This document shows, in pieces, positions 9,001-24,420 of a stretch of 64,000 nt of DNA. The position numbers were made by a program, and so were the translations under genes. Origin of the DNA: Candidatus Eremiobacteria bacterium (GTDB lineage: Bacteria; Vulcanimicrobiota; Vulcanimicrobiia; Vulcanimicrobiales; Vulcanimicrobiaceae); NCBI GenBank assembly GCA_963758295.1, contig CAVWUU010000001.1, forward strand, positions 448,001 through 512,000, in the 5' to 3' direction. The first letter of the stretch is position 1. Each line of letters starts with the position of its first letter. Below the pieces are notes generated by a model. The model ran no database searches. It worked only from the letters and a program-made list of their open reading frames with translations, and had not been told where the DNA came from.

Positions 9001-12000
9001 CGCGGGCGTTTCGATGGGCGGCAGCGGCGGCGCCGGCGGCGTCGCGCACGACGTTAGCGTAAATAGCTCCGGCGAAGTGCTCACCTTCGGCGAACTCTCG
9101 AGCGGCATCGCCGCGCAATCGATCGGCGGCGGCGGCGGAAACGGCGGCTTCGCGGTTCTCGCGACCGGTTCGATGCAAACGCAAGCCGATGTCGCGCTTG
9201 GCGGCTCCGGCGGCTCGGGCAGTTCTTCGGGAACCGTAACGGTTGACAACTCCGGACTCGTCATCACCAAAGGCGATCTTGCAGACGGTATTCTCGCGCA
9301 GTCGATCGGCGGCGGCGGCGGCAACGCCGGCTTCGCGCTTGCCGCATCCATCAGCCAAAATTATTCGACGGCGTTCTCGCTCGGCGGCAGCGGACGGCGA
9401 CGGCTCGAACGGCGGCGTCGTCAACGTTGACAACGAAGGGCAAATCGAAACCTACGGCACGAGTTCGCAAGGCGTCATCGCGCAGTCGATCGGCGGCGGC
9501 GGCGGTAACGGCGGCATTCGCGGCGCAAGCGCCGGCTTCGGCGGGCAGGGCGGCATCGGTCTCGCGTTCGGTGGAAACGCCGGCAGCGGCGGCAACGGTC
9601 TCGCCGTCAACGTCCTCTCCGGAACGAGCGCGACCGGCACGGTCATCATCACCAACGGCGTAAATGCGAACGGCATTCTCGCGCAATCCATCGGCGGCGG
9701 CGGCGGCAACGGCGGCGTCGCAGCTGCCGGTGTCGGTGCAAACGGCCCGGCATTCGGATTCTCGATGGGCGGCAACGGCGGAAACGGCGGCGGGGGCGAC
9801 GCGGTCAACGTTCAAGTCAACTCTGCGATTGCCACGTACGGCGATTTTGCCAACGGCGTCGTTGCACAGTCGATCGGCGGCGGCGGCGGTAACGGCGCAA
9901 TCGACGCGACGGGCGCCGGTTCTTCGAAATTGAGTTCGGCGGTCGGCGTCGGCGGAAGCGGCGGCACCGGCGGCAGTGCTTCGACCGTGAACCTGATCAA
10001 TCAAGGACAAATCACGACGCAAGGCACGAATGCTGCAGGCATCATCGCGCAATCGATCGGCGGCGGCGGCGGCAACGGCGGCGTGAGCATCGCGGGCTCG
10101 ATCTCGCAATCGAACGCGTTCGGCGTGGCGGTCGGCGGCAGCGGCGGAAGCGGCGGCGGATCGAACGACGTGACGGTTCAAAACGGCGGCAGCATCGTGA
10201 CGAACGGCCAGTTCGCCGACGGTATCATTGCGCAGTCCATCGGCGGGGGCGGCGGTAACGGCGCCGTTAGCGTCGGTGGAACGTTGAGCAACTCTTCGGG
10301 CATCGGCGTCGGCGTGGGCGGCAACGGCGGCAACGGCGGCGACGCCGGCACCGTATCCGTTAGCAATACGTATGCGGGACAAGCGGGCGTCATCATTACG
10401 AACGGCGCCGGATCGGTCGGCATCCTTGCACAATCGATCGGCGGCGGCGGGGGCAGCGGCGGCGTCGGAATCAGCGGCAGCATCAACGGCTCTTCGGACG
10501 ATCTCGCGCTCGCGCTTGGTGCAAGTAACGGAACTGTCGGCCATGGCGGCAACGTCACGGTGACGAACGGCGGCACGATTCTTGCCAACGGCGTGGATGC
10601 GGTTGCGGTTGAAGCGCAATCCATCGGCGGCGGCGGTGGCGTCGTCACGGTGAACCTCGCCGGCGGCTTCTCACAAAACAGCGGTAACGTCAAAATGACG
10701 CTCGGCAGCGATGAAACGACGGCGACGGATATGAGCGGCGGTGTCGTAGCGCTTGCGAACACGGGCAACGTGCAGACCACCGGCAACGGCGCGCACGGCG
10801 TGTTGGAGCAATCGATTGGCGGCGGCGGCGGACAAGCCGCGCTTTCGGGAACGCTGACCAACGCGCTTTCCGATAATGCGACGCTTTCGATTGCAGACGG
10901 CGGATACGGCGGTTCAGCGACGGCGGCACAAAATCTTACCGCTAAGAACAGCGGCATGGTTCTCACGAGCGGCACCGGCGCGAACGCAGTGTTCGCGCAG
11001 TCGATCGGCGGCGGCGGCGGTGACGCGGGTTACGCGCTCGTCGCGGATTTGGGCGCAACGGCGAAGGCTGCAAACTTCTCGCTCGCGATGGGCGGAACGG
11101 GCGGCAGCGCCGGCACTGCGGGAACGATCGCTTTAACGACGTCCGGCGTGCTGCAAACGCTCGGTGAAAATTCCGCCGGATTGCTCGCGCAGTCGATCGG
11201 CGGCGGCGGCGGCACCGGCGGCTTTACGGCAAACGGGACGTTCACCACCAGCAGCGCGGCGTCGCAATTCAACGTTGCCGTCGGCGGAGCGGGCGGTTCG
11301 CAAAACAACGCAGCGGCAATCGGCGTAACGAACAACGGAACGGTGCTTACGTTCGGTAACGGATCTTCCGGAATCGAGGCGCAAGCCATCGGCGGCGGCG
11401 GCGGTGACGCCGGCATGACGGTCTCGGGCGCCTTCTCAGGCACGAGCGCAAAATCGATTTCCGAATCGATCGGCGGAGCCGGAAGCGGCAACGGCGCGGC
11501 GATTACGCTTGCGAATGTCGGCGCGATTCAGACCGGTACGCAAGCTTCGGGCTCCGGAACGAATTCAAACGGACTGCTCGCACAATCCATCGGCGGCGGC
11601 GGCGGTAACGGTTCCATTGCGCTCTCGCAACTCGCACTTGGAACGGCCGGCGAAGCTACGACGACGAACGTAAATCTTACCGTCGGCGGCGCGACCGGAT
11701 CGAGCGGCTTCGGCGATGCGATCGGCGTGAACGATAACGGAACGATCTCAACGTTCGGTGCGGCATCGAACGGTTTGGCGGCGCAGTCGATCGGCGCGGG
11801 CGGCGGTAACGCGACGCTTACGTTCTGCGGTTGCAACGTTACGGGCTCAAACGCAGCCGGCGCCACGATCGCCCTTAATGCGGTGCTCGGCGACCCTGCG
11901 TCGACGAATAGCACGGGCGGAAACATTTCGATCGATCATACGAACGGCGAAATCTACACGAGCGGCAGCGTTTCCAACGGCGTGCTCGTGCAATCCATCG

Positions 12001-14849
12001 GCGGCGGCGGCGGCACGATCACGTCGGCGCTCAATAGCGCGGTTGGAACGTACTCGCTGAATGCGACGATCGGCGGCAACGGCGGCGTAAACGACTCCGG
12101 CGGAACGCTCGATCTGCAAAATGCCGGATCGATAGCTACGACGGGCGCTCTTTCGGACGGGATCCTCGCGCAGTCGGTTGGCGGCGGCGGCGGTTCGCTC
12201 GCAAGCGCCTATGGCAGCGCATCGCACGCGAACGTTACGCTCGGTGGAAACGCTGCGAGCGGCGACGCCGGCGCAATCACCATTGCCAACAGCGGTGACG
12301 TCTATACGCAAGGAACGTCGTCGAGCGCCCTCTTCGCGCAATCCATCGGCGGCGGCGGCGGATCGTTCGTAACCAATGCGGCGAATGCGAACGACGCGTT
12401 CGTGCTCGGCGGTGCGAACGGCACTACCGGCAACGGCGGCGCAATCGGCATCAACAACGCGGGTTCGATCCAAACGACCGGCACGGACGCTTACGGCATC
12501 TTCGCGCAGTCCGTCGGCGGCGGCGGCGGCGCGGCGCTCGCAAGCGGAACGGTGACGCTGCAGAACGGCGGGACCGGCGACGGCGGCGCAGTCGATATTA
12601 CGAACGGTGGAAACATCGTTACCTCGGGCAACGGTGCCGACGGCATCTTCGCGCAATCCATCGGCGGCGGCGGCGGTATCGCCGGAACGTTCGCCGGAAG
12701 CGCCGGCGGAAACGGCTCCGCGGGCAACATCAACATCGCTCAAACCGGCGTGATCTATACGCAGGGATCGGCGGCAAACGGCATCGTCGCGCAAAGCGCT
12801 GCCGGCGCGGGAACCGGCGGCAACGTAAACGTTGCAGTGAACGGTTCGATTTACGTGACGGCGTCGAACGCAAACGGCGTTCTCGCGGGAAGCAGCGGCA
12901 GCGGCAGCGGCGGCGACGTCAACGTCACGCTTTCCGCAAACGGCGTGATCGTGGGCGGCGGCGGAACGAGCGGCGCCGGAACGACAAGCGTTTCCGGGCG
13001 AGCCAAATATCACGACGGCATCGTTGGACGGGGCGGGAAAGAAGACGCGGCACAAGCGTCCACCGTTTCGGGAGCAGCCGTGCAGTTTGAAGGCAACGGG
13101 ACGAACTCGTTGACGAATAACGGCACGATTACAACGCTGGCCGGCATAAAGGGCTTCGCCGTTGCCTCGACCGGCGGCACGACGTCGATCGTGAACAACG
13201 GCGTTATGGTGGGCTCGATCTCGCTCGCGAATTCGGCTAACAATTCGTTCACGAATTCCGCTAACGGGGTGTTCATCGCCGGTTCAACCATCAATTTGGG
13301 CGGCGGCACGTTCATGAACGACGGCGCTCTATCGCCCGGCGGCATCGGATCGATCGGCACGATGAACGTTACCGGAAACTACAACCAATCCATGACCGGT
13401 ACGACGGCGATGGATCTGAACTATTTGAACGGCGCCTACGATCGGATCAATGCGACCGGCAACGTGACTGTCTCGGGTCAACTCGACCTCTCGCTGCTCA
13501 ATGTCGCCAACGTGACCTCCGGCGTGCACAACTACGACCTGTTCACGGCCGGTGGAACGCTGAGCGATCAATCGCTGCAGCTGGTTGCGCCGCAGTCGGC
13601 GGTGTCGACCTATTCGCTGGTTCCGAATGCGAATGGCAAGCTGCAGTTGCAGAACGTGGTGAACTTCTCGCCGGCAAACATCAGCGGCGGCACGAGCTCG
13701 TTCGGAAGCTACGTGAGCCTGCTTCAGGCGGCCGGATCGTCACCGTCGCTTTCCGGCATGGTCGCTCAGATCTTTAATGCGCCGTCAGCGACCCAGCTCA
13801 CGCGCCTGTATCAACAGCTAACGCCCGCCAGTTACGGTCCGATGGAAGCCGCTACGCTGCTCAGCACGTTGAATTTCTCGCAAGAAATGCTCACGTGTAA
13901 ATCGCCCGAGACGGACTTCGCATCGCTCTCGCGCGGTCGCTGCGTCTGGGGTGGTTTGGGCAGCACGCAGTCAACGCAAATGGGATCCACGGCTGCCGTC
14001 GGTTACAACGAATACAACGCCGGTGTCTCGTACGGCTTCCAGAACGTCGTGAGCCGCGATAAACAAACGCTCTTCGGCGGCGCGTTCTCGTTCGGAGAAG
14101 ACAACCTTTACGCGAACAGTTCGTCGATGTGGGGCTCCCGCTTCACCGGCGGGCTCTTGTTGAAGCGTGAAAACTCGCACACCGGCATGACGTACTCGTT
14201 GGACGTCACCGGCGGATCGGGCAATTATCAAACCCGCCGCACGATCGAGTTCCCGAGCACGGCGATCCCGACGTCCGCGGGCGCGACCGGCTTTGGATCG
14301 TATCAAACGCCGTCGGCCACGGCTACCGGAGCGAGCTACGTCTCGTTCTTCAACACCGGGCTTCGCGCCGACAAGTACGTTGCGCTCGCCGACGGATGGG
14401 CGCTTACGCCGTACGTTTCGCTGACGGACACGCGCTTGTCGCTCACGCCGACGACCGAAACCGGTGCAGGCGCGCTGAACATCAAGACGGCTTACGAGGG
14501 CGATTCGTATCTGACGCTACAGAGCGGCTTCGAGCTCGGCGGAATCTATCAGGCGAAGAGCTGGCAGATCCAGCCGCACCTCGATATCTTCGCGACGCAG
14601 TTCGTCGGCAACAATCAAACGGGATTACCGTCGACCCTGGAAGGCCAGCCGGTGTGGATGAAGCCCTTCACGTTCAACAATGAAATAGACCGCACGCTCT
14701 TCAACCTGCAGCCGACGATCGATTTCGGTGGAAAATCCGGATTCAGCATGCGCCTCGGCGGCACTTACCAGTTCAGCCCGCACGTGCACGGCGGCACGCT
14801 GAACATCAATATCTCGCAGAAACTGGGGCCTTCACCGAAGGCCCCGTAA
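1..14849 (+). CDS. Giant glycine-rich repeat autotransporter/adhesin (5'-partial; broken into several ORFs by indels)
   Basis: Dozens of ~63-aa modules with GI(L/V)AQS(I/V/L)GGGGG(N/D/Y)GG continue across ORFs 242-4618, 4413-6797, 6794-9430 (pieces) and 9243-14849. The C-terminal part has a passenger-end segment (LSPGGIGSIGTMNVTGNY) and an aromatic-rich beta-barrel-like region (~13940-14849). Confidence 0.85.
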
Positions 14850-14858
14850 ACCAGCGAA

Positions 14859-15374
14859 CTACTTCAGCTTATCGCTGACTTCCGAAAAGCCCGTAAGGGG
14901 CAGCGTAGCGTTCACGGTGTGCTCGCGAAGGGCGCCGTCGAGAATCACGTAAGAGACGCGAAGATCGCCCTTGCCGGCACGCATCGCGCTCAGCAGATCG
15001 GCCGTCATTGTGCCCGTTGCGAAGCAGCCCTGCTGCGAGCACGCGAGATAGGTGAACGTTTGCGACGACGCGGTGCCCGCGGCGACCGAGACAGGCGTGC
15101 GGACGGAGACGCCGAGCGGCACGTTCATCGAAAGGCCGACCTTGCCGTCGCCTTGGGCGGCAACGGTGAAGCCGATAACCAACCCGCCGTTTGTGAGGAC
15201 CTGATCGGTCCCGTGGCAGGCGAGGCTGCCTTTAACGGGATCGCACTCCAACTTCCATCCGCTGGTGCTTCCCTGCGTCATCGTGTTCGCAGGAGCGGCC
15301 GTGGGTGCCGGGGTCGCAGCCTGAACGACACCCGAAGACAATGCAAAAAGAGCAACTGCAGAAAGCAATTTCAT
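14859..15374 (-). CDS. Invasion-associated locus B (IalB)-like secreted protein
   Basis: Signal peptide MKLLSAVALFALSSGVVQAA, then GWKLEC..LAC, VPLGV and ACSQQGCFA, a Cys/Trp pattern typical of the IalB family. Confidence 0.7.
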   Translation of the reverse strand: MKLLSAVALFALSSGVVQAATPAPTAAPANTMTQGSTSGWKLECDPVKGSLACHGTDQVLTNGGLVIGFTVAAQGDGKVGLSMNVPLGVSVRTPVSVAAGTASSQTFTYLACSQQGCFATGTMTADLLSAMRAGKGDLRVSYVILDGALREHTVNATLPLTGFSEVSDKLK

Positions 15375-15831
15375 ACCGTTGTTTTCGGCAATGCGGCTTC
15401 GAAACTTCTGCAAAACGGCTTGTTTTTGAGTAAAGATGGCCGACGAGGGGGAAGCGCTGCGTACCAGCGTTCCAAGTCGCTATGCCACTGGCTTAACGCA
15501 TCGGGCTGAGATAAATGCATAATGTCCCGACGGATAGAAGCCGTAGGTGATGTCTTCTGAAGGGCCAGCGGCAAATTTAGAGGTTGTAGCGTGTACACCG
15601 TCGCGAGCCAAGGCGTAACCGAATCGTAGTATCAAGGGTGCCGAGAACTTGTGCAAACGCGGATTCGTCGTCATCTTTGACGCATGCCAGCCTCGGTATC
15701 GCTCTTTTAAAAAGACTGGCGCGACCGGGCAAAAGCTCTGGCCGACATCGAACGCGGGAATCTTCGCGTGTGGACGCGCGTAGAAGACGTCTTACCCTCG
15801 TTGCAACGCCTCGAAAAATAGCCCCCGTCGC

Positions 15832-16789: not shown

Positions 16790-16979
16790 GATTCATCGTT
16801 CATTAAGGCTACCGCCCCGTTCCTTTCCAAGCTCGAGTCAAGCTAATGCGAAGCCGGCGCAACGCGGTTGATTCGACAATAAACTGCAAACGTTGCGAAA
16901 TTTTTTGTTCTCGTCTTGAAAGCGTTGTCAGACTTGCAGCCGGTGAAGCACTGAGCGGATGACGCCGTAAAGCGGCGTT

Positions 16980-17237
16980 CTAGAGCCCGATTCGGGTTAG
17001 GTCGGCAATGAATTCTTGCGTGCTGGGGCGATCCAGCCAATTCGCGAGTATTGCTTCAGCTTCGCGAGCCGAGCCGAGCACGCCGAGGTGATGCTCGACC
17101 GAAGCGCGTTGCGGAGCCGGATTCTGCAGCTCCGCTTCAAGGTCGTCAATTGATTGATGCGCTTCGTCGGTGGCCGGGATAGCGCCACGCAGCGCTTCCC
17201 CGGGAAAAGAAGATCGGACTTCGTCGTACTTATCCAT
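16980..17237 (-). CDS. Small helical hypothetical protein
   Basis: 85-aa ORF with natural amphipathic composition, ending LTRIGL. Confidence 0.55.
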   Translation of the reverse strand: MDKYDEVRSSFPGEALRGAIPATDEAHQSIDDLEAELQNPAPQRASVEHHLGVLGSAREAEAILANWLDRPSTQEFIADLTRIGL

Positions 17238-17409
17238 GCGGCAACGCTACAAGGCGCGTTATCGCGCGCCCTGCTGCTCCGCAAGGGGACCCCACTTCTT
17301 AAGGACGCGCCTTCTCGCTGCAAACATCGTAGGCTCGACGCCAAGCGAATGCTAGAGATGAACATCCCGTTCGTGCGGGTACTGACAGACCGCGCTGGGG
17401 CTGCCGCGG

Positions 17410-18321
17410 TCATGACGAAACAGACGTGATCCGCGTGCCGCGGTATATTCTCGGCCGCACCCCTTGCGGACCGCGACACGTCAATTGCGCCGGGGATCCG
17501 GCCGTGCTTGAAACCGTAACGTCGAACGTGCCACGCGCAGTCGCGACTCTTACCTGCAAGCGCTCTTCGTCGACCTTCGTCACCGACGTCGCGGTGAGTG
17601 CGTCGCGTGCCGTGATCCCGAGCTGTTGATGTGCGTAGACGATTGCCGCTTGCGCCGCCGGCGTCAGCCCGATGCGCCCCCGCAAAATGTCCGGCAGAAC
17701 TTGGCCTGTCTCGGCGCGTTCCACGAACTGCGCTGCGATTTCCGCGCTCACGCGCCCGTACAGCTCTCCCGTCGGCAAAACCAAGACGTTCGCGGCGAAA
17801 CGGTCGCCGCCCAAATGCGTGGTTTCCCACACGCGACGGGGGCGTAGGTGTTGCAGTGCTTGCGCAACGGGCCGCCCGCGCAACGCGCAGCACGCATCGT
17901 GACGCCCGTGCGCGCAAACCAAGTATAACGGTTGCGTATCGATCGCAATGGGTGCGCGATGCGGCCCTGCGCCTTCCAGTTCGTCGGCGAGCTGCGCTAA
18001 ATCATCGAAGCGCCACCACGCAATCGCTTGCGCACCCGCCCGCGTGTCGGCAATCCCCACGTCGTAGCCTCCAGGGGGCGGCCCCACGTGATGTTTGCCG
18101 TGGCGGCGAATCGCTTGGAGACGCATGCCGGCGCGCGCAGCTGAGACGTCGATGCGATGCGCAACGTCAGGATCGGCACGGCTCTCGAGCAAGCCGCGTG
18201 GCCCCCATGCACCCGGTTGGTGCACCAGCAGTACGCGCGCTTGCGGCGGCGCGGTGCCAAGCATCGAATCGCCGCGTTCATCTGCTGCCGCCGCGCACCG
18301 AAATGCTGGAACACGCGTCAT
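17410..18321 (-). CDS. Sucrase/ferredoxin-like (Apd1/Aim32-type thioredoxin-fold Fe-S) protein
   Basis: LVCAHGRHDACCALRG and WETTHLGGDRFAANVLVLPTGELYGR motifs; ATGA overlap with the upstream gene. Confidence 0.85.
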   Translation of the reverse strand: MTRVPAFRCAAAADERGDSMLGTAPPQARVLLVHQPGAWGPRGLLESRADPDVAHRIDVSAARAGMRLQAIRRHGKHHVGPPPGGYDVGIADTRAGAQAIAWWRFDDLAQLADELEGAGPHRAPIAIDTQPLYLVCAHGRHDACCALRGRPVAQALQHLRPRRVWETTHLGGDRFAANVLVLPTGELYGRVSAEIAAQFVERAETGQVLPDILRGRIGLTPAAQAAIVYAHQQLGITARDALTATSVTKVDEERLQVRVATARGTFDVTVSSTAGSPAQLTCRGPQGVRPRIYRGTRITSVSS

Positions 18322-19526
18322 ACCGGAACGACGATGCCCTCGCGCAGGAGCTGTGCGATCAGCGCCAAGCCCTCCAGCACATCGACGCCCGGCAGAGCCT
18401 CGGCCGAGACAACGGCGCCCGAAACGGCGAGCTGTGCGGCTTGCGCTTGCGCTTCGGTAACGCGAACTTCTTTGTCGGGCAATTCGATCACAAGCTCATC
18501 ATCGCCGGCACGGAATGTTGGACGAAGCCCGGGTCGCACACGTACTTTTGCGTCCGGTGCAAGGGACTCGGCCGCAGCGAATTGTTCGAGCGGCCGAAGT
18601 GGTGCAGGGCGCGTCGCCGCCGCCAGATTGCGTCGAAGCGCGCGAGCGATCGTTCCGCGATCGAAGCGATCGATCGCCGCGTGCAGCGCAGCGATCGTCG
18701 CTTTGAGATCGCCATCGATAGCGCGTTCATCGGTCAAATCGATGCCGGCGGGTAACGAGCGGCGCAGTTCGACATCGTCCGAGAGGACGCTGAGAACTTC
18801 ATCCGCGAGCATCCGGCGCGTCAACGCATGTATCCCGACGGTTAGGTGGCCCGAAATTTCGTTTAACGACGTCGCAGCATGAATGTATCCGCGCGGCAAA
18901 TAGAGCGCGTCGCCACATTCGAGAACGCAATCGATAAGCGGCGTTTCAGCGGCACGCGCGGCAACGGCGGGCTTGCGTGCCTGCCACGGTTGGTCGCGAA
19001 GCGGCGCCTGCAAGACGGGGTCATAGATGCGCCATCGTTTGCGGCCGGCGAATTGGAGCACGAAGACGTCGTGAACGTCATAGTGAGGGGCAAAGCCCGA
19101 GTTCTGCGGCGGCGTTAAATAGGCGTTTACTTGCACGGGGTGTCCGAGCTGCGCTGCAAGCGATTCCGCAAAGGATTGAATCGGCGCCCAAGTTCGATGC
19201 AAGCCCTGGAGCACGAGGGTTGCGCCTGAAGCAAATTCGGTGAGGATCTTGTCGTCGGCGACCTGATCGGCAATTTCCGCACCAGCGCCACCGCCGCGCG
19301 TGTACCGCGACGGCGGCAGAAGATCGCCGTCTCGAGTCATGCGGACGAACGGTGTGCGCAAACCGCGCCGCGACACCAACTCGTCGACTGCGTCCAGGGA
19401 AAGCAATTCGGAAAACCCGCCATTGGGAAGTTGCGCGGCGTTCAGAAGCAGCGGCGCAACGCCCCAATGTGATGTGGAAAATTCACCGAGGGTGAGCCCG
19501 GTGAGGCGGAAGAGCGGATCGCTCAG
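18318..19526 (-). CDS. JmjC/cupin 2OG-Fe(II) oxygenase (ROXA/YcfD-like), probable CTG start
   Basis: NAYLTP..GFAPHYDVHDVF (HxD) and LYLPRGYIH. The frame is open 40 codons upstream of the TTG at 19406, through FSTSHWGVAPLL, to a CTG at 19526 that overlaps the peptide's stop codon. Confidence 0.85.
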   Translation of the reverse strand: MSDPLFRLTGLTLGEFSTSHWGVAPLLLNAAQLPNGGFSELLSLDAVDELVSRRGLRTPFVRMTRDGDLLPPSRYTRGGGAGAEIADQVADDKILTEFASGATLVLQGLHRTWAPIQSFAESLAAQLGHPVQVNAYLTPPQNSGFAPHYDVHDVFVLQFAGRKRWRIYDPVLQAPLRDQPWQARKPAVAARAAETPLIDCVLECGDALYLPRGYIHAATSLNEISGHLTVGIHALTRRMLADEVLSVLSDDVELRRSLPAGIDLTDERAIDGDLKATIAALHAAIDRFDRGTIARALRRNLAAATRPAPLRPLEQFAAAESLAPDAKVRVRPGLRPTFRAGDDELVIELPDKEVRVTEAQAQAAQLAVSGAVVSAEALPGVDVLEGLALIAQLLREGIVVPV

Positions 19527-19753
19527 CTACCGCCACCGGCGCCTGCGTCGGCACCTCCGTCTGCGCCGCCGTCGGCATCCTCATCCGCGCCGCCGTCGGC
19601 TCCGCCGTCTTGCATGCCCGGATTACCCGAAGCGCCGCCATCGGCCGGCCCTTCAGCGCCGCCGTCCGCGCCGCCGTCATGCATGCCCGGCGTACCGGAA
19701 GCTCCGCCGTCGGCCGTGCCTTCGCGACCCGTTCTGTCGTCATCTTCAAACAT
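19523..19753 (-). CDS. Acidic DGGA-repeat peptide (76 aa), candidate precursor/substrate
   Basis: GGAG RBS upstream of ATG; eight DGGA motifs; internal duplication ADGGASG(T/N)PGM(H/Q)DGGADGGA. Confidence 0.75.
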   Translation of the reverse strand: MFEDDDRTGREGTADGGASGTPGMHDGGADGGAEGPADGGASGNPGMQDGGADGGADEDADGGADGGADAGAGGGS

Positions 19754-20143
19754 CGTTCGGCTCCATCAAAGCGTGGGTAACCGCAAAAGCGCGGTCACAC
19801 GGCGTTTGCCCAGGCCCGCAAACGGTAAAACAGCCGCGGCCCGTTCGTTCGCTCGGGCACGATTACCACGCACCTCATTGACGCCTCTTCATGTAGCAAT
19901 GAAATCATTGCGCTCTCCTTATGGACTTACCGCGCGCTGACCCCGTCGTCATCGTGTTCGGGGTGTTTTTATGTTCAAGGTACTTCTTGGACCATGGCGA
20001 CAGACGGAGGAAAATCGGCGGGACGATTTCATTTGCCAAAATAGCCTGCGCTACTTACTTCGCTACCGAAAGCAACTCACGCATGCGCGCGCCCGTGGAT
20101 GCTGTGGTCGCCGTCAAATACGCGAAGGGCGACTGTAAGATTG

Positions 20144-20215
20144 AGGCGACGGGCAGATTCGAACTACCGCATAGGGCCTTTGCAGGGCCCCGCCTTACCG
20201 CTTGGCTACGTCGCC
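20144..20215 (-). tRNA. tRNA-Cys (GCA)
   Basis: Minus strand reads GGCGACG TA GCCAAGCGGTAAGGC G GGGCC CTGCAAA GGCCC TATGC GGTAG TTCGAAT CTGCC CGTCGCC T: full cloverleaf, GCA anticodon, U73 discriminator; followed by CAA rather than CCA. Confidence 0.93.
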
Positions 20216-20440
20216 GCCGTAGACGTTATACGAGCCGCGTTGTATTGGATCATGCTTTTGCAATTGTTGCATGTGAGCTCTCTAGGGCGTTCGCTAGCGC
20301 CCACCCCTGGGGTACGACGATACCGTGGAACCAACGGCTCATACACGTGCAGCGCAGCTCAATATACCAAGTCGCCGCGCACTAGGATATCGCTCGCTCG
20401 CGATTTGCCATCCACAAACCGCAAACGCTGCTTAGATAGT

Positions 20441-20456
20441 GTAATGTTAACATTAC
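20441..20456. promoter_or_regulatory. Perfect 16-bp palindrome, candidate repressor operator
   Basis: GTAATGTTAACATTAC is its own reverse complement and lies ~40 bp upstream of the hydrolase start. Confidence 0.5.
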
Positions 20457-20494
20457 CGTATTGGGACTCGGCTGAATGTGTTCGAGGTTAGGCA

Positions 20495-22123
20495 ATGACC
20501 AATCCGCGCCTTTTTGAGAGGCGGCACTTGTGGCGATACGTTCTCATGCTCGCGTTTTTCTTTTTCACCCACGCTCGTGCAGGGCATCATGCCGCGAGTC
20601 GCTCATGCCGCCGAAGACGCTGCAACCATTCCGCGCTTCGAGCCGGCGTCGTGTCCGAAACTGCAAGGCGTAGAATGGCTCGTCCGCGCAGACTGCGGCT
20701 ATCTCATCGTGCCCGAGGATCGTAGCCGCCCGAACGGTCGTACCATCCGGCTCCTAGTCGCAAAACATCGTGCACAATCATCGAAAAAGCGGCCCGATCC
20801 GATCCTATACCTGGAAGGCGGCCCCGGGGACATTGCCCCGCTTGAGATCAACTCGATCATCGCCGCCGGACTTCATTCGCGACCGGGACATTTGGGTGGT
20901 GAGTCAGCGCGGCACCTGGCTTTCGCAGCCCGCGCTCACATGTGCGGAGACGAACAATTTCGCAAGAGCGCTCCTTGGCCTCCGTTTCTATTCTGCGGCA
21001 ACGAAGCGCGCACATTTGGCTGCGACGGAAGCCTGCCACGGCAAGCTCATTGCCACCGGAGCCAATCTGAGTGCATACAATTCGACTGAGAGCGTTGCGG
21101 ATCTCGCGGATCTTCGCAAAGTCCTGCGCATTGCTGAGTGGAACGTTTATGCGAACTCGTACGGCACGTATGTGGCTCAGACGCTTATGCGCGATCACCC
21201 CGATGGTATCCGGAGCGTTGTCCTCGATTCGGTCGTACCGACAACGTATACCATCCCTGCAAACTGGTGGAACGCCCGCTACGCCTTCGACAACATCTTT
21301 CAGGCGTGCGCAGCGCAACCGGCTTGCAATGCGGCGCACCCCGATCTGAAGCAAACCTTTACGCGACTCGTTAAGAAGCTTGAGGCCGAGCCGCTGACGA
21401 CAACAGTCAGCTGACCCTATCACCGGCAAAGACGTCAGCGTGGTGATCGACGGCGGTGCGCTGATCGACTGGCTGCGTAATCAGACATATAGCGTGCCAA
21501 TGCTTCGCGCCGCGCCGGATCGGATCGCCGGCCTCGCCGACGGTCGCCGCCAATCCATCGAGGTGATCGCCGAGGATCGGGCCGGCCGGGCGCCACCATA
21601 TCGACCGGGTGTCCGGTTCTCGGTGACGGCCTCGCTTTCGGCGTCACCTGCCGAGAAGATTATCCCTTCGCGACCACGGAAGAACTTGCGGCGGCTGGCC
21701 GAGAAGCGTTTCCGGACTTTCCCGTTTCAGTGCAGCGCGAGGCTGTCGGCGGCTGGGCGTATGCTAACGAAGACTGCCGCGAAGTCTGGAAACCGGCCGC
21801 CGCTCCGAAGACCATGCACGAGCCTGTTGCGAGCAGCATTCCAACGCTCCTCATTTCCGGCACCTTCGATACGTTGACGTCTCTCGCCGGGGCGCGGGCC
21901 GCAGCGACTCGCCTGTCCCACGCGACAATCATCAGCATCCCGGGTGTAGGGCATACTGACTTCCGCATCGTCTCCTTGCGCCCAAGCAGTCATCGTCTCG
22001 TTCTATGCCGCTCCCAATCGCGTCGACACATCGTGCGTCCGTGGGTTGAAACCGCAACGTTTCACCTCAACCGCATCACCACAGGTACGACCGTCTGCGA
22101 CGAGCCCTACGGATGCATCTTAG
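20495..22123 (+). CDS. Secreted alpha/beta hydrolase, TAP-like tripeptidyl aminopeptidase family (frameshifted)
   Basis: CGYLIVPEDRSRPNGRTIRL, PILYLEGGPG, SQRGT, NSYGT, VVLDS and PTLLISGTFD..H are spread over 4-5 frames. Confidence 0.8.
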
Positions 22124-22250
22124 CTGTTCGCAATCGCCGCTCGAAATGCTGAAGATTGACCTTAGCCGTTTCGGCACCTCAGGTCTTTTAACAATGGAAC
22201 GCCTCGCGGAAATTCGAGACGTTCTATTTGCTGGTGTACCGCGAGGACGA

Positions 22251-22661
22251 TTAGAATTTCTTCCTCTCACGTTCAGGAGACCAATCCTCTACCAATTGTC
22301 GAACTTCGATGGCGCCAAAATGCGCGCTCGGAATTAGCGCAGCGTATTCGAGCGCCTGATCATGACTGGCGCAGTTGAACACATAAAATCCAGCCAGCAC
22401 CTCTTGCTTCGCAAACGGTCCTTCTGAAAGAACTCGCTTGCCATCGCGGATTCGCAGTGTCCTTGCCGTATTTGATTCGTAGAACCGGGCGCGATTGTGA
22501 ATTTGCGTGGACAGCGTCTCGTTCAGCTGCTGATATGCATTAGCAGCCGTTTGCAACTCCTCTGGACTTGCCGCTACATCCGTCGGGATATAAATCAAAC
22601 AAATATATTTCAAGGTAGTACCTTCTAGCTCACAAAAGAATCGAGTAGTCTCGGCTACCAA
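22251..22661 (-). CDS. YciI/DGPF-family protein
   Basis: RIRDGKRVLSEGPFAKQEVLAGFY..A..G.IEVR motif; true start probably TTG at LKYICLIY. Confidence 0.8.
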   Translation of the reverse strand: MVAETTRFFCELEGTTLKYICLIYIPTDVAASPEELQTAANAYQQLNETLSTQIHNRARFYESNTARTLRIRDGKRVLSEGPFAKQEVLAGFYVFNCASHDQALEYAALIPSAHFGAIEVRQLVEDWSPERERKKF

Positions 22662-23449
22662 TCGACGACCAAACCGCCGGTAAGATTGACCGTTGATGCA
22701 GTCATCGATGTCGCGCGGTCGCTCGCTGCAAAGGCTGCCGCATCGGCTACTTCTTGCACGGTGGTCGAACGTTTCGTGTGCGTGAGGCTCTCGATGAACC
22801 CCTGAAACTGTTGCTGTGGAATACCAATCGCTTTGGCATGCAAGCCGAAGACGGTTTCGATTGTCTTCGTTTCCGGCAGCCCCGTCGAGCGAATGGTCAC
22901 CGCGCGGATCCCATATTGGGCAAGCTCGCCTGAAAAATTACGATTCATCGCTTCCATCGAGGCCCATGACGGCGCCATGCCGCCAACGAGGCGAGCGCCG
23001 AGACGTGAGACCTCCGGGACGTGCGCGAGAATTACACCGCTCTTCTGTTGCATCATGCGCTGCGCCGCTGCCCGAGCCGTAATGAAGTATGACTTAGAGT
23101 ACGCGACGATCGGCTTCATGAAATCTTCGACGGCAATCTCTAGTAAGGGTACACCCTGAACGCCCTGCTGCGGAATGCTGATCGAGCAGAACGAGATGTC
23201 GATGCGTCCGGCCTTCGTCAACACATCGTCGAGGTACGCGTTAGCTGCATTTTCGTCGAGCACGTCGACCATTGATGCTTCCGCTGCTCCGCCTGTGCGG
23301 ACGATCTCGTCGGCAAGAGCTTGGACGGCTGTGTGCGTACGTCCGGCAAGAAAGAGGCGCGCACCTTCGCGCGCAAAGGTTTTTGCGACTACGCTACCGA
23401 CGCCGCCCGCCGCGCCATAGATCACCGCAATTTTGTTTTGGAGTAACAT
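22655..23449 (-). CDS. SDR family oxidoreductase (atypical)
   Basis: IYGAAGGVG Rossmann motif, GRIDI, C-terminal TASTVNLTGG. Confidence 0.9.
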   Translation of the reverse strand: MLLQNKIAVIYGAAGGVGSVVAKTFAREGARLFLAGRTHTAVQALADEIVRTGGAAEASMVDVLDENAANAYLDDVLTKAGRIDISFCSISIPQQGVQGVPLLEIAVEDFMKPIVAYSKSYFITARAAAQRMMQQKSGVILAHVPEVSRLGARLVGGMAPSWASMEAMNRNFSGELAQYGIRAVTIRSTGLPETKTIETVFGLHAKAIGIPQQQFQGFIESLTHTKRSTTVQEVADAAAFAASDRATSMTASTVNLTGGLVVDW

Positions 23450-23523: not shown

Positions 23524-24420
23524 ATGCTATATACGGACCTCGAGGATCGCATAGAACCTCTGCGGCCGCGGTTGCACAGGTATTGCTCGCGTATGACCGG
23601 CTCGGTGTTCGATGGCGAAGACGTCGTGCAGGAGGCCCTGATGCAGGCATTTCGCGCTTTGCGCTCCGAAACGGAAATCGTCGATCTCGAGCGTTGGATG
23701 TTCAAGATCGCCCACAACGCCGCCATCGATTTCTTGCGGAAACGAGCGCGCGAATCGCCGCTAGCCGAGTACGATCCGGAAACGCTCGCCTTTACTGATA
23801 ATGAAAACGATCACATCGAGACGGTCCCGGTGAGCATGCGAATGCTGATGCGCCTTCCTGCAAACCAGCGCGCCGCCGTGCTGTTGAAAGATGTGCTCGG
23901 ATACCGCTTGCAAGACGTGACGTCAATTCTCGAAATGACGCTTCCAGCAGTAAAGACGGCGCTGCATCGCGGTCGTTCGCAATTGCGGGACCTTGCGCAA
24001 AGAGAGCTAAAACCGACGTGGGCACCGAAGCTGTCGCCGGCTCAGCGAGCTCTGTTCGAACGCTACGTTGACCTTTTCAACGCACATGACTTCGATGCAA
24101 TTCGGGAAACGCTCGCCGAAGAAGTTCGCTTGGATCTCGTCGGGGTCGAAAGGCGTGAAGGCAAGCTTAACGTCGGGCACTACTTTGAAAACTATAGCAA
24201 GCGTTCGTATTGGCGCCTGCGGGTGGGCACGCTCGAAGGTCGTTATGTGGTCATGGTGCATAGCGCTGAGGTCGGGTCACCGCCGCTCTACTTCGTGGAG
24301 CTCCAATGGGAGGGCGACAAAGTCCGCTCGATCCGCGATTTCGCGCATGCGCGCTACGCGCTCGCGAATACAGAAATTGAGGAATCCTTTTCGAAGGCGC
24401 CATCGTCCGTTGATGCATGA
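23524..24420 (+). CDS. ECF sigma-70 factor with SnoaL-like C-terminal extension
   Basis: LHRYCSRMTGSVFDGEDVVQE, WMFKIAHN and AVKTALHRGR; C-terminal RYVDLFNAHDFDAI..LAEEVRL. Confidence 0.9.
   Translation: MLYTDLEDRIEPLRPRLHRYCSRMTGSVFDGEDVVQEALMQAFRALRSETEIVDLERWMFKIAHNAAIDFLRKRARESPLAEYDPETLAFTDNENDHIETVPVSMRMLMRLPANQRAAVLLKDVLGYRLQDVTSILEMTLPAVKTALHRGRSQLRDLAQRELKPTWAPKLSPAQRALFERYVDLFNAHDFDAIRETLAEEVRLDLVGVERREGKLNVGHYFENYSKRSYWRLRVGTLEGRYVVMVHSAEVGSPPLYFVELQWEGDKVRSIRDFAHARYALANTEIEESFSKAPSSVDA

Follow-up and report, generated by a model that had tools for sequence, protein, structure and literature searches.

Three overlapping genes on the minus strand

The window analysed here is a 64,000-nucleotide stretch of DNA from a Candidatus Eremiobacteria bacterium of the phylum Eremiobacterota (assembly GCA_963758295.1, contig CAVWUU010000001.1, positions 448,001 to 512,000 of the forward strand), and all coordinates given below are positions within it. 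The window carries a compact unit of three minus-strand genes that encode, in order of transcription, an acidic microprotein built of DGGA repeats, a JmjC Fe(II)/2-oxoglutarate (2OG) oxygenase of the ribosomal oxygenase (ROX) type, and a Suc_Fer-like protein. The microprotein gene (19753-19523, minus strand), identified as an open reading frame (ORF) and from its translation of 76 amino acids (aa), ends in a TGA stop at 19525-19523 and is preceded by a Shine-Dalgarno-like GGAG (19761-19764, minus strand; read from the sequence) that lies 7 nucleotides (nt) before the ATG; the same GGAG is present in the alignment of two related loci, L007 and L008. The oxygenase gene (18318-19526, minus strand) encodes 402 aa if started at a CTG at 19526-19524, and the Suc_Fer-like gene (17410-18321, minus strand; Pfam PF06999) encodes a protein of 303 aa with an isoelectric point (pI) of 9.76.

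A sequence-only reading of this DNA had proposed three genes, all of which were recovered on the minus strand, and had described the JmjC gene as overlapping the Fe-S protein gene by an ATGA, which the coordinates confirm (ATG 18321-18319, TGA 18320-18318). It had also described a 4-nt overlap between the stop of the peptide gene and the start of the JmjC gene. The overlap itself stands, but the apparent start is the non-canonical CTG, so the shared nucleotides read CTGA (CTG 19526-19524 over TGA 19525-19523) and not ATGA. A search of the operon neighbourhood (16800-20600) against Rfam returned only a tRNA and one chance-level match, scans for sigma-70 promoters and terminators gave results at the level of shuffled sequence, and no terminator-like site was found in the scan between the microprotein ORF and the JmjC gene. 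Two small hairpins, CGTTTGC-8 nt-GCAAACG and ACCGC-6 nt-GCGGT, are visible by eye in the 5' leader of the microprotein gene (19780-19824, minus strand). The L007 alignment retains a recognisable form of each, and they could serve as an operator or as structure in the leader RNA.

Conservation of the unit across genomes and metagenomes

Among species-representative genomes there are at least 596 stretches that match, many of them actinobacterial, in genera that include Micromonospora, Actinoplanes, Amycolatopsis, Pseudonocardia and Geodermatophilus; the related loci analysed were 80 from such genomes and 80 from metagenomes. A DGGA-type ORF precedes the JmjC gene, in the same orientation, at all 76 genome loci for which the upstream DNA measures 74 nt or more, the remaining four of the 80 having too little of it (at most 111 nt), and at all 74 metagenome loci for which it measures 150 nt or more. 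The combined linkage is 150/150 loci with enough upstream DNA, and a DGGA-type ORF is also present in all 11 further Eremiobacterota loci. Conservation of the operon is established, and the DGG peptide, the absence of which from homologous JmjC loci would by the earlier reading's own criterion have refuted it, is kept at every related JmjC locus with enough upstream DNA. Five loci of JmjC_2 paralogues of approximately 30% identity, by comparison, have no DGGA-type ORF.

The specificity of this arrangement is visible in a control scan for ORF segments with at least three DGGA-type motifs and a DGGADG: 156 such segments lie within the 1 kb upstream of JmjC genes on the same strand (139 kb in total), and one lies in the remaining 1.81 Mb of flanking DNA on both strands. 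The genome to which the window belongs has four matches to the DGGADGGA DNA pattern, all at the operon locus, and one match to the reversed control. The lone outside segment of the control scan (1608-1851 of L068, plus strand; Actinoplanes sp. HUAS TT8) lies approximately 2 kb upstream of JmjC, at a locus that has the adjacent ORF as well.

The Suc_Fer-like gene follows the JmjC gene at 69 of the 80 genome loci and at all 40 metagenome loci in which the JmjC match is near-complete and the downstream DNA extends for 400 nt or more; one metagenome locus with a shorter JmjC match (L163) has no Suc_Fer-like gene. The 11 genome loci that have none are nine Micromonospora or Actinoplanes loci with 4 kb of downstream DNA and two cut contigs. 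When all ORFs of at least 90 aa within 4 kb on either side were clustered for 81 loci, wide sharing was limited to the JmjC gene itself, present in 81 loci, the ORFs that shadow it on the antisense strand, and the Suc_Fer-like gene, present in 68. The next clusters, each in at most 19 loci, are by eye a UbiE/MenG-like methyltransferase, a radical-SAM menaquinone-type enzyme, a pyrophosphatase and a D-Ala-D-Ala carboxypeptidase-like protein, and these represent lineage synteny; in one lineage the unit is placed among housekeeping menaquinone genes. No protease, exporter, immunity gene, receptor or regulator is conserved within 4 kb across the 81 loci, in agreement with the earlier statement that no protease or exporter is adjacent, and no leader recognition element (RRE) or leader protease domain was detected in the three proteins or among the conserved neighbours.

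These data bear on the earlier label of the operon as resembling a pathway for a peptide that is made on the ribosome and modified after its translation (RiPP). Adjacency of a small putative precursor gene and a putative modifying enzyme was found in 150/150 loci; a leader protease, an RRE and an exporter were not found among the 81 loci, and the peptides are 41-280 aa long, so that 'RiPP' is a loose fit for this unit. A stronger version, in which the modified peptide is a true RiPP and acts as a secreted poly-beta-hydroxy-Asp metallophore that chelates iron or calcium, appears improbable. It draws on the same linkage as a reading of the peptide as enzyme substrate, and known siderophores use beta-hydroxy-Asp to ligate iron. 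An Fe/2OG enzyme that hydroxylates Asp is reported from a RiPP pathway (PMC12186529). Set against this are the lack of any conserved protease, exporter, receptor or RRE in the 81 loci, the length of the peptides (median 88 aa, up to 280 aa), which have no signal peptide evident from their sequences, and the position of the unit amid housekeeping menaquinone genes in one lineage.

The DGGA-repeat microprotein

The microprotein begins MFEDDDRTGREGTADGGASG, with MFEDDD at its N-terminus, and has a pI of 4.05. Its body consists of two 23-aa units, EGTADGGASGTPGMHDGGADGGA followed by EGPADGGASGNPGMQDGGADGGA, and then a DGGA-rich tail, the consensus of the units being EG[TP]ADGGASG[TN]PGM[HQ]DGGADGGA. 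The 76-aa length, eight DGGA motifs and internal duplication reported from the sequence alone were all reproduced, the motifs by counting on the translation and the duplication by Tandem Repeats Finder, which detects 2.0 copies of a 69-nt unit (85% matches) and gives periods of 12, 24 and 69. The two 69-nt copies differ at 10 codons, seven of which are synonymous in the DGGA frame, and carry H and Q, respectively, at the same position. An alignment with the orthologue from an Eremiobacterota metagenome-assembled genome (L007), the JmjC protein of which is 79% identical to that of the window, covers 73 codons, of which 37 are identical, 26 synonymous and 10 non-synonymous, and the nucleotide differences at codon positions 1, 2 and 3 number 6, 4 and 30. 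This pattern indicates that the small ORF is a real coding gene under purifying selection.

The tandem periods of 12, 24 and 69 could also be taken to mean that the repeat is a GC-rich 12-nt tandem DNA repeat without a coding role and the ORF a by-product, a view that might seem to gain from the fact that gene finders often miss the ORF or use another frame (11/17 long JmjC calls). This is highly implausible. Codon statistics already contradict it, the third codon position accounting for 30 of the 40 nucleotide differences, and the start codon, the Shine-Dalgarno-like sequence, the N-terminal motif and the stop are all kept. Across genome and metagenome loci, moreover, the microprotein frame is shifted by 0, 1 or 2 relative to that of JmjC, and the spacing between the two genes ranges from overlap to 279 nt. 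It follows from the variable offset that what is kept is the DGGA amino-acid reading and not a DNA repeat in a fixed register: the amino-acid repeat persists while the DNA and its frame relative to JmjC differ.

Family statistics were drawn from 136 complete ORFs, obtained from 151 found after those with N-runs, no start or no stop had been dropped. The members have a median length of 88 aa (range 41-280) and are composed of 37% G, 19% A and 19% D, with Cys in one ORF and Trp in one. In 102/136 an acidic run lies no more than 10 aa from a start codon, typically as M-A/S-L-D-D-D-D-M/I-T, and DGGADG is present in 136/136, with a median of six copies; many members, though not all, have the longer unit GPAD[GS]GA...PGx[HQ]DGGADG. 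Both the acidic motif at the N-terminus and the repeat unit persist across phyla. His is present in only 86/136 microproteins, the JmjC tree shows at least 11 changes in the state of the His motif, and H and Q differ between the window's own copies, which together indicate that His is dispensable. N runs lie inside the repeat ORF at L075 (Kineosporia), L077 and L083 (both Micromonospora), and are either assembly gaps or masked stretches. The microprotein has no match to a Pfam or NCBIfam family, and the window's own copy is absent from the called proteins that were searched; its relatives bear the public names 'hypothetical protein' or, automatically assigned, 'BatC protein'.

The JmjC oxygenase belongs to the ROX group

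The JmjC protein matches PF08007 (JmjC_2) with 96.6 bits against a cut-off of 22 (E 1e-27), and with 99.6 bits in a six-frame search of the window's genome, where it is the only PF08007 match; it also matches the Pfam family Cupin_8 (E 1.6e-08) and has no NCBIfam name. Residues H148, D150 and H227, a predicted facial triad, and K163, a predicted 2OG-binding lysine, are invariant in 27 homologues, and the corresponding motifs align with PHYD, GRKLW and SLHLT of NO66. The JmjC gene with an HxD...H motif that had been called from the sequence is thus upheld, both by a Pfam match above cut-off and by the invariance of the triad in 27 sequences. When a profile of 27 orthologues was searched against Protein Data Bank (PDB) sequences, NO66 (1.9e-27) and MINA53 (2.8e-23) ranked well ahead of a Rhodothermus YcfD-like protein (2.4e-12) and Escherichia coli YcfD (1.2e-08). 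In these searches the microprotein-linked clade is, on sequence, the bacterial clade closest to NO66.

An AlphaFold2 (AF2) model of the protein, with a predicted local distance difference test (pLDDT) score of 85.9, matches NO66 over its full length in Foldseek (E 2.4e-25; template-modelling (TM) score TMq 0.58-0.60; 437-460 columns for the 402-aa model), followed by MINA53 and YcfD, also full-length. The three-part layout of ROX enzymes, namely a JmjC barrel, a helical domain and a C-terminal winged-helix-like domain, was recognised on the model by Foldseek, and the moderate TM score suggests that the modelled domains stand at different angles from those of NO66. The Pfam match, the motifs, and NO66, MINA53 and YcfD as the closest solved structures together identify the protein as a ROX-type JmjC protein hydroxylase. 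The enzyme is acidic in 85/85 orthologues, with a median pI of 5.64 and none of the 85 above 7.5.

The Suc_Fer-like protein

The third protein matches PF06999 (Suc_Fer-like) with 71.1 bits against a cut-off of 34.9 (E 1.6e-19). A search of PDB sequences returned no solved structure for it, and NCBIfam gave only a ferredoxin hint of 0.04. Its AF2 model (pLDDT 91.3) contains a central region of approximately 100 residues that matches the Aquifex thioredoxin-like [2Fe-2S] ferredoxin 1f37 in Foldseek (E 8.5e-04, TMt 0.68-0.71), the probability of the matches to 1f37 and 1m2a-d being 1.00. C136, H138, D142, C144 and C145 are invariant in 68/68 orthologues and H169 is present in 67/68; position 173 is D in 54, C in 8 and E in 5 of the 68, each a residue able to bind metal, and C9 and C282 are each present in 65/68. 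The conserved Cys and His residues make a metal or cluster site likely, with C136, C144/C145, H169 and D173 as candidate ligands, a set that is not an established one. The protein is basic in 45/68 orthologues.

An apparent non-canonical start for the JmjC gene

In the JmjC frame, a TAG stop at 19529-19527 directly precedes the CTG at 19526-19524, and there is no ATG, GTG or TTG in this frame before TTG 19406, 40 codons downstream. The 40 residues between the CTG and this TTG are conserved in homologues and fold with a pLDDT of 87-95, and many homologues of exactly 402 aa have their initial Met (MSDPL/MNDPL) where the window has its CTG. The lack of a canonical start is not confined to the window: in 6 of the 12 Eremiobacterota loci, the stretch that separates the conserved JmjC N-terminus from the in-frame stop upstream of it is free of ATG, GTG and TTG. 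A CTG overlaps the peptide TGA in four of those six (the window, L171, L172 and L180), while L174 has a CTG one codon after an in-frame TAA and the JmjC frame of L173 runs on after a TAA. The other six have either a GTG or ATG within the 3' end of the peptide gene or a start after a spacer of 93-120 nt; the start of the spacer type is ATG in one locus and TTG or ATG in the other. Actinobacterial JmjC genes have their own GTG or ATG and a Shine-Dalgarno-like sequence, with spacers that are mostly 20-135 nt and reach 279 nt. The CTGA of the window is backed by an identical CTGA in L171/L007, L172/L008 and L180/L090; in four soil DNA runs (shares 0.07-0.14), contigs match pieces of the operon only, and none spans the junction 19523-19526 full-length.

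Annotation of the family is systematically wrong, the microprotein often being missed and the JmjC protein over-extended or cut to 340 aa. Among the matches listed, 11 of 120 homologues are 340-aa JmjC calls, the window's own among them, and 11 of the 17 long JmjC calls that were retrieved extend through an alternative frame of the repeat, giving false N-termini such as TAAPMAARTAEP… (P0013, P0017, P0022, P0050, P0062, P0075, P0095, P0100, P0103, P0109 and P0112).

A fusion of peptide and JmjC protein by frameshift or readthrough was considered and set aside. The junction frames differ between loci (-1 in four, an in-frame TAA in two), which argues against a fusion and favours re-initiation beside the stop at a non-canonical codon, and no slippery sequence was evident on reading the peptide/JmjC junctions. 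Ribosomes that terminate at the peptide TGA may re-start at the overlapping CTG, such that translation of JmjC would depend on translation of the peptide, and a re-start at CTG would yield little enzyme per substrate. At L173 and L174 (Eremiobacterota genomes G141 and G233) the peptide and JmjC lie in the same frame with a TAA between them, plus one codon in L174, and here either re-initiation or stop-codon readthrough that gives a fusion protein is conceivable.

The same junctions raise the question of whether the small ORF is mainly a cis-acting leader, or upstream ORF, that gates JmjC through sensing of Asp, Gly or Ala, for instance, or through stalling, its peptide having no function. The six Eremiobacterota JmjC genes that lack a canonical start and abut or overlap the ORF stop would fit such a role, as would the extreme Gly, Ala and Asp content of the product. 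The explanation is nevertheless quite unlikely, and ranks below the metallophore, given the purifying selection on the amino-acid sequence and the conservation of the N-terminal acidic motif and repeat unit across phyla. Actinobacterial JmjC genes, moreover, have their own start and Shine-Dalgarno-like sequence behind spacers of up to 279 nt, the ORF lengths of 41-280 aa are unlike those of attenuator leaders, and the scan found no terminator-like site between the ORF and JmjC.

Probable horizontal transfer and genomic setting

The host is an Eremiobacterota genome, and its JmjC protein nests among actinobacterial sequences. In a quick IQ-TREE phylogeny of 89 JmjC proteins, rooted on four distant paralogues, the window JmjC pairs with L007 (Shimodaira-Hasegawa-like approximate likelihood ratio test (SH-aLRT) support of 100) within a seven-row clade (99); this clade is sister to Marmoricola and Allobranchiibius (99), and the whole group lies inside the actinobacterial radiation. 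Of 301 genomes that sample the phylum, 12 have orthologues, and these belong to a single family; five genomes of the same genus (61-92% completeness) have none. The GC content of the operon is 62-67%, that of its flanks 52-58% and that of the window 60.9%. The simplest reading of the tree and this distribution is that the unit was transferred horizontally from Actinomycetota into Eremiobacterota.

Same-genus genomes share DNA of the window between 14800 and 23500 only at a tRNA-Cys gene, at a region around 14800-15800 that holds the IalB-like gene (14859-15413), with 84% identity over the first 606 bases in genome G003, and at a few short matches of 49-171 bases with 68-86% identity, none of which lies inside the operon, and the operon is accordingly placed in a variable region. 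The tRNA-Cys(GCA) gene (20143-20215, minus strand) lies about 390 nt upstream of the microprotein gene and has a terminator-like hairpin (20078-20092, minus strand). It was considered as an integration site and rejected: in 12 related loci (10 from Eremiobacterota genomes and two from metagenomes) the unit has no adjacent tRNA, which makes the tRNA-Cys gene only a local feature.

The other neighbours identified by Pfam are an extracytoplasmic function (ECF) sigma factor with a SnoaL_2 domain (23524-24420, plus strand), a short-chain dehydrogenase (22655-23449, minus strand), a YCII-domain protein (22251-22661, minus strand) and the IalB-family protein (14859-15413, minus strand), none of which is conserved beside the unit elsewhere. 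An alpha/beta-hydrolase or TAP-like peptidase gene (20514-22152, plus strand) is spread over at least three overlapping ORFs, with Abhydrolase_1 in 20770-21414 and Abhydrolase_4 in 21730-22152, and is probably a frameshifted pseudogene. Further away, a plus-strand gene (9243-14849) encodes a protein of 1868 aa with dozens of Gly-rich units (…AQSIGGGGGNG…) and a C-terminal third that is free of repeats; Pfam gives no match for it at E 0.001, and the protein looks like a giant autotransporter-type surface protein.

Proposed function of the unit

The explanation that best covers the data as a whole, and to which we give somewhat less than an even chance, is a three-gene operon of actinobacterial origin in which the microprotein is the dedicated substrate of the JmjC enzyme, the Fe-S protein is accessory, and the enzyme is coupled to its substrate through the CTG. 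The strict linkage, the repeat array with its invariant hexapeptide and the membership of the enzyme in a protein-hydroxylase family point together to an enzyme with its own substrate, which the microprotein most likely is. The proposal of a dedicated substrate made by the sequence-only reading is therefore favoured by the linkage in 150/150 loci and by the co-conserved Suc_Fer-like gene (69/80), and disfavoured by the acidity of the enzyme throughout the family.

Under this proposal, the first product would be a disordered, highly acidic Asp/Gly/Ala repeat microprotein and the NO66-like JmjC enzyme would hydroxylate many residues of its repeats. The best guess for the target is C3 of the Asp in DGGADG, because this motif alone occurs in every family member; the His that adjoins DGGADG in many but not all members may be a second or alternative hydroxylation site. 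The Suc_Fer-like protein may serve as an accessory one-electron donor that keeps or restores the Fe(II) of the oxygenase, or as a binder of the acidic product, and the unit as a whole would have entered Eremiobacterota from Actinomycetota by horizontal transfer.

Several observations weigh against this proposal. An acidic JmjC protein does not favour simple electrostatic binding of a polyanion and suits basic ribosomal proteins better, and the nearest relatives of established activity modify His or Arg and not Asp. Among the JmjC columns, none convincingly follows the peptide His (10 phylogenetically independent pairs, no sign test below 0.05), and the Suc_Fer-like gene is missing from 11/80 genome loci and hence not essential to the chemistry. 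Re-initiation at the CTG is deduced from sequence alone, and the tree behind the proposed transfer comes from a quick search and is rooted on long-branched paralogues. A model of the complex, computed from the JmjC alignment with Fe(II) and the 76-aa peptide, gave an ipSAE of 0.02 in both runs (mark 0.32) with a peptide pLDDT below 50, and speaks neither for nor against binding.

The most serious competitor, clearly less probable than the dedicated substrate and still well ahead of a metallophore, is that the JmjC enzyme keeps the ancestral ROX task of modifying a basic cellular protein, such as a ribosomal protein, and that the microprotein is a partner: a chaperone, a decoy or inhibitor, or a buffer for Fe(II)/Ca(II) by which the enzyme and the Fe-S protein are loaded or controlled. 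Ribosomal proteins are the substrates of every close relative with a solved structure, and the gene is the sole PF08007 gene of the genome; the opposite charges of the proteins (JmjC acidic in 85/85, Suc_Fer-like basic in 45/68 orthologues) and the plausibility of an Asp-rich polyanion as a cation binder would also suit this role. The clade is, however, patchy (12/301 in the phylum, 0/5 in the genus), unlike a housekeeping modification of the ribosome. The co-inheritance of enzyme and microprotein in 150/150 loci is what would be expected of a substrate, and the repeat with its invariant DGGADG resembles an array of identical target sites.

A bolder extension of the dedicated-substrate proposal, which we hold to be doubtful, is that the NO66-like oxygenase turns the coupled (DGGA)n chain into poly-(beta-hydroxy-Asp) that binds iron or calcium or senses O2, Fe or 2OG. 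A dedicated Fe-S partner would then maintain the iron of the oxygenase, the unit would move between phyla, and in Eremiobacterota only ribosomes that had just completed the substrate ORF and re-started at the overlapping CUG would make the enzyme. If true, such a ribosomally made polymer would be a new kind of intracellular or released metal-binding or sensing molecule.

Comparison with known systems

The human ribosomal oxygenases NO66 (RIOX1) and MINA53 (RIOX2) are the best sequence and fold matches of the JmjC protein, and their PHYD...GRKxW...H motifs align with it. Their substrates are basic ribosomal proteins that are encoded elsewhere and modified on His, in targets that sit in Gly-rich loops, whereas the unit described here has an acidic repeat microprotein, with His in 86/136 members, before the enzyme and an Fe-S protein after it. 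E. coli YcfD (RoxA) and the YcfD-like protein of Rhodothermus marinus are bacterial JmjC_2/ROX enzymes with the same multi-domain layout as the window JmjC, although the match is much weaker (E 1e-08 to 2e-12). YcfD-type enzymes are Arg hydroxylases of ribosomal protein L16, and we know of no linked substrate gene for them; to our knowledge, the ROX oxygenases NO66, MINA53 and YcfD are known only as ribosomal-protein hydroxylases.

The central region of the Suc_Fer-like protein (approximately 100 residues) shares the fold of Aquifex Fd4 (1f37) and has Cys and His at ligand-like positions. The cluster ligands are four Cys in Aquifex Fd4 and two Cys with HxGGH in yeast Apd1/Aim32 of the Suc_Fer-like family. 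In contrast to these proteins, the Suc_Fer-like protein of the unit, at 303 aa, has extra N- and C-terminal domains, an Asp, Cys or Glu at the putative fourth ligand position in place of Cys or His, and an additional invariant CxHxxHDxCC motif.

Biphenomycin work reportedly offers a further case, besides those that follow, of an Fe/2OG-type enzyme that acts on a ribosomal peptide. According to PMC11575548, CzlI of the curacozole RiPP cluster is a JmjC-type Fe/2OG hydroxylase that acts on a ribosomal precursor peptide encoded by the adjacent gene; it resembles Bacillus subtilis YxbC, hydroxylates a single Phe, is not essential, and belongs to a multi-enzyme cyanobactin-like cluster. That cluster resembles the present unit in having a JmjC oxygenase gene beside a ribosomal peptide gene and differs from it in that the present unit consists of only three genes and has a repeat peptide. 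SmaO, as described in PMC12186529, is an Fe(II)/2OG aspartate beta-hydroxylase of a RiPP pathway, the product of which is passed to an HD-domain enzyme that makes aminomalonate. It provides a precedent for Asp beta-hydroxylation in a ribosomal peptide, as proposed for DGGADG, and differs in that no HD-domain gene is conserved around the present unit in 81 loci. The bacterial MINA/NO66 neighbourhoods in the available part of Iyer et al. 2010 (PMC2938197) are ATP-grasp, cyanophage and pseudouridine-synthase contexts and not this trio.

Literature searches found no published description of a unit composed of a DGGA microprotein, a JmjC protein and a Suc_Fer-like protein, in keeping with the earlier remark that the trio has no characterised function, and the papers they found on sucrase-ferredoxin or PF06999 were fungal or plant papers only. 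The unit is widespread and yet unnamed, with no specific named family for any of its three proteins, and the cross-phylum copy, the apparent non-AUG coupling, the analysis of Suc_Fer-like ligands and the dispensability of His are new here. The apparent transfer across phyla suggests that the unit works as a portable module, and the Eremiobacterota copies are a natural case of apparent CUG-dependent translational coupling. Set beside NO66, MINA53 and YcfD, this branch of the ROX family, with its apparent own substrate gene, offers a simple two-gene system in which the action of such enzymes on Asp/Gly-rich sequences can be tested.

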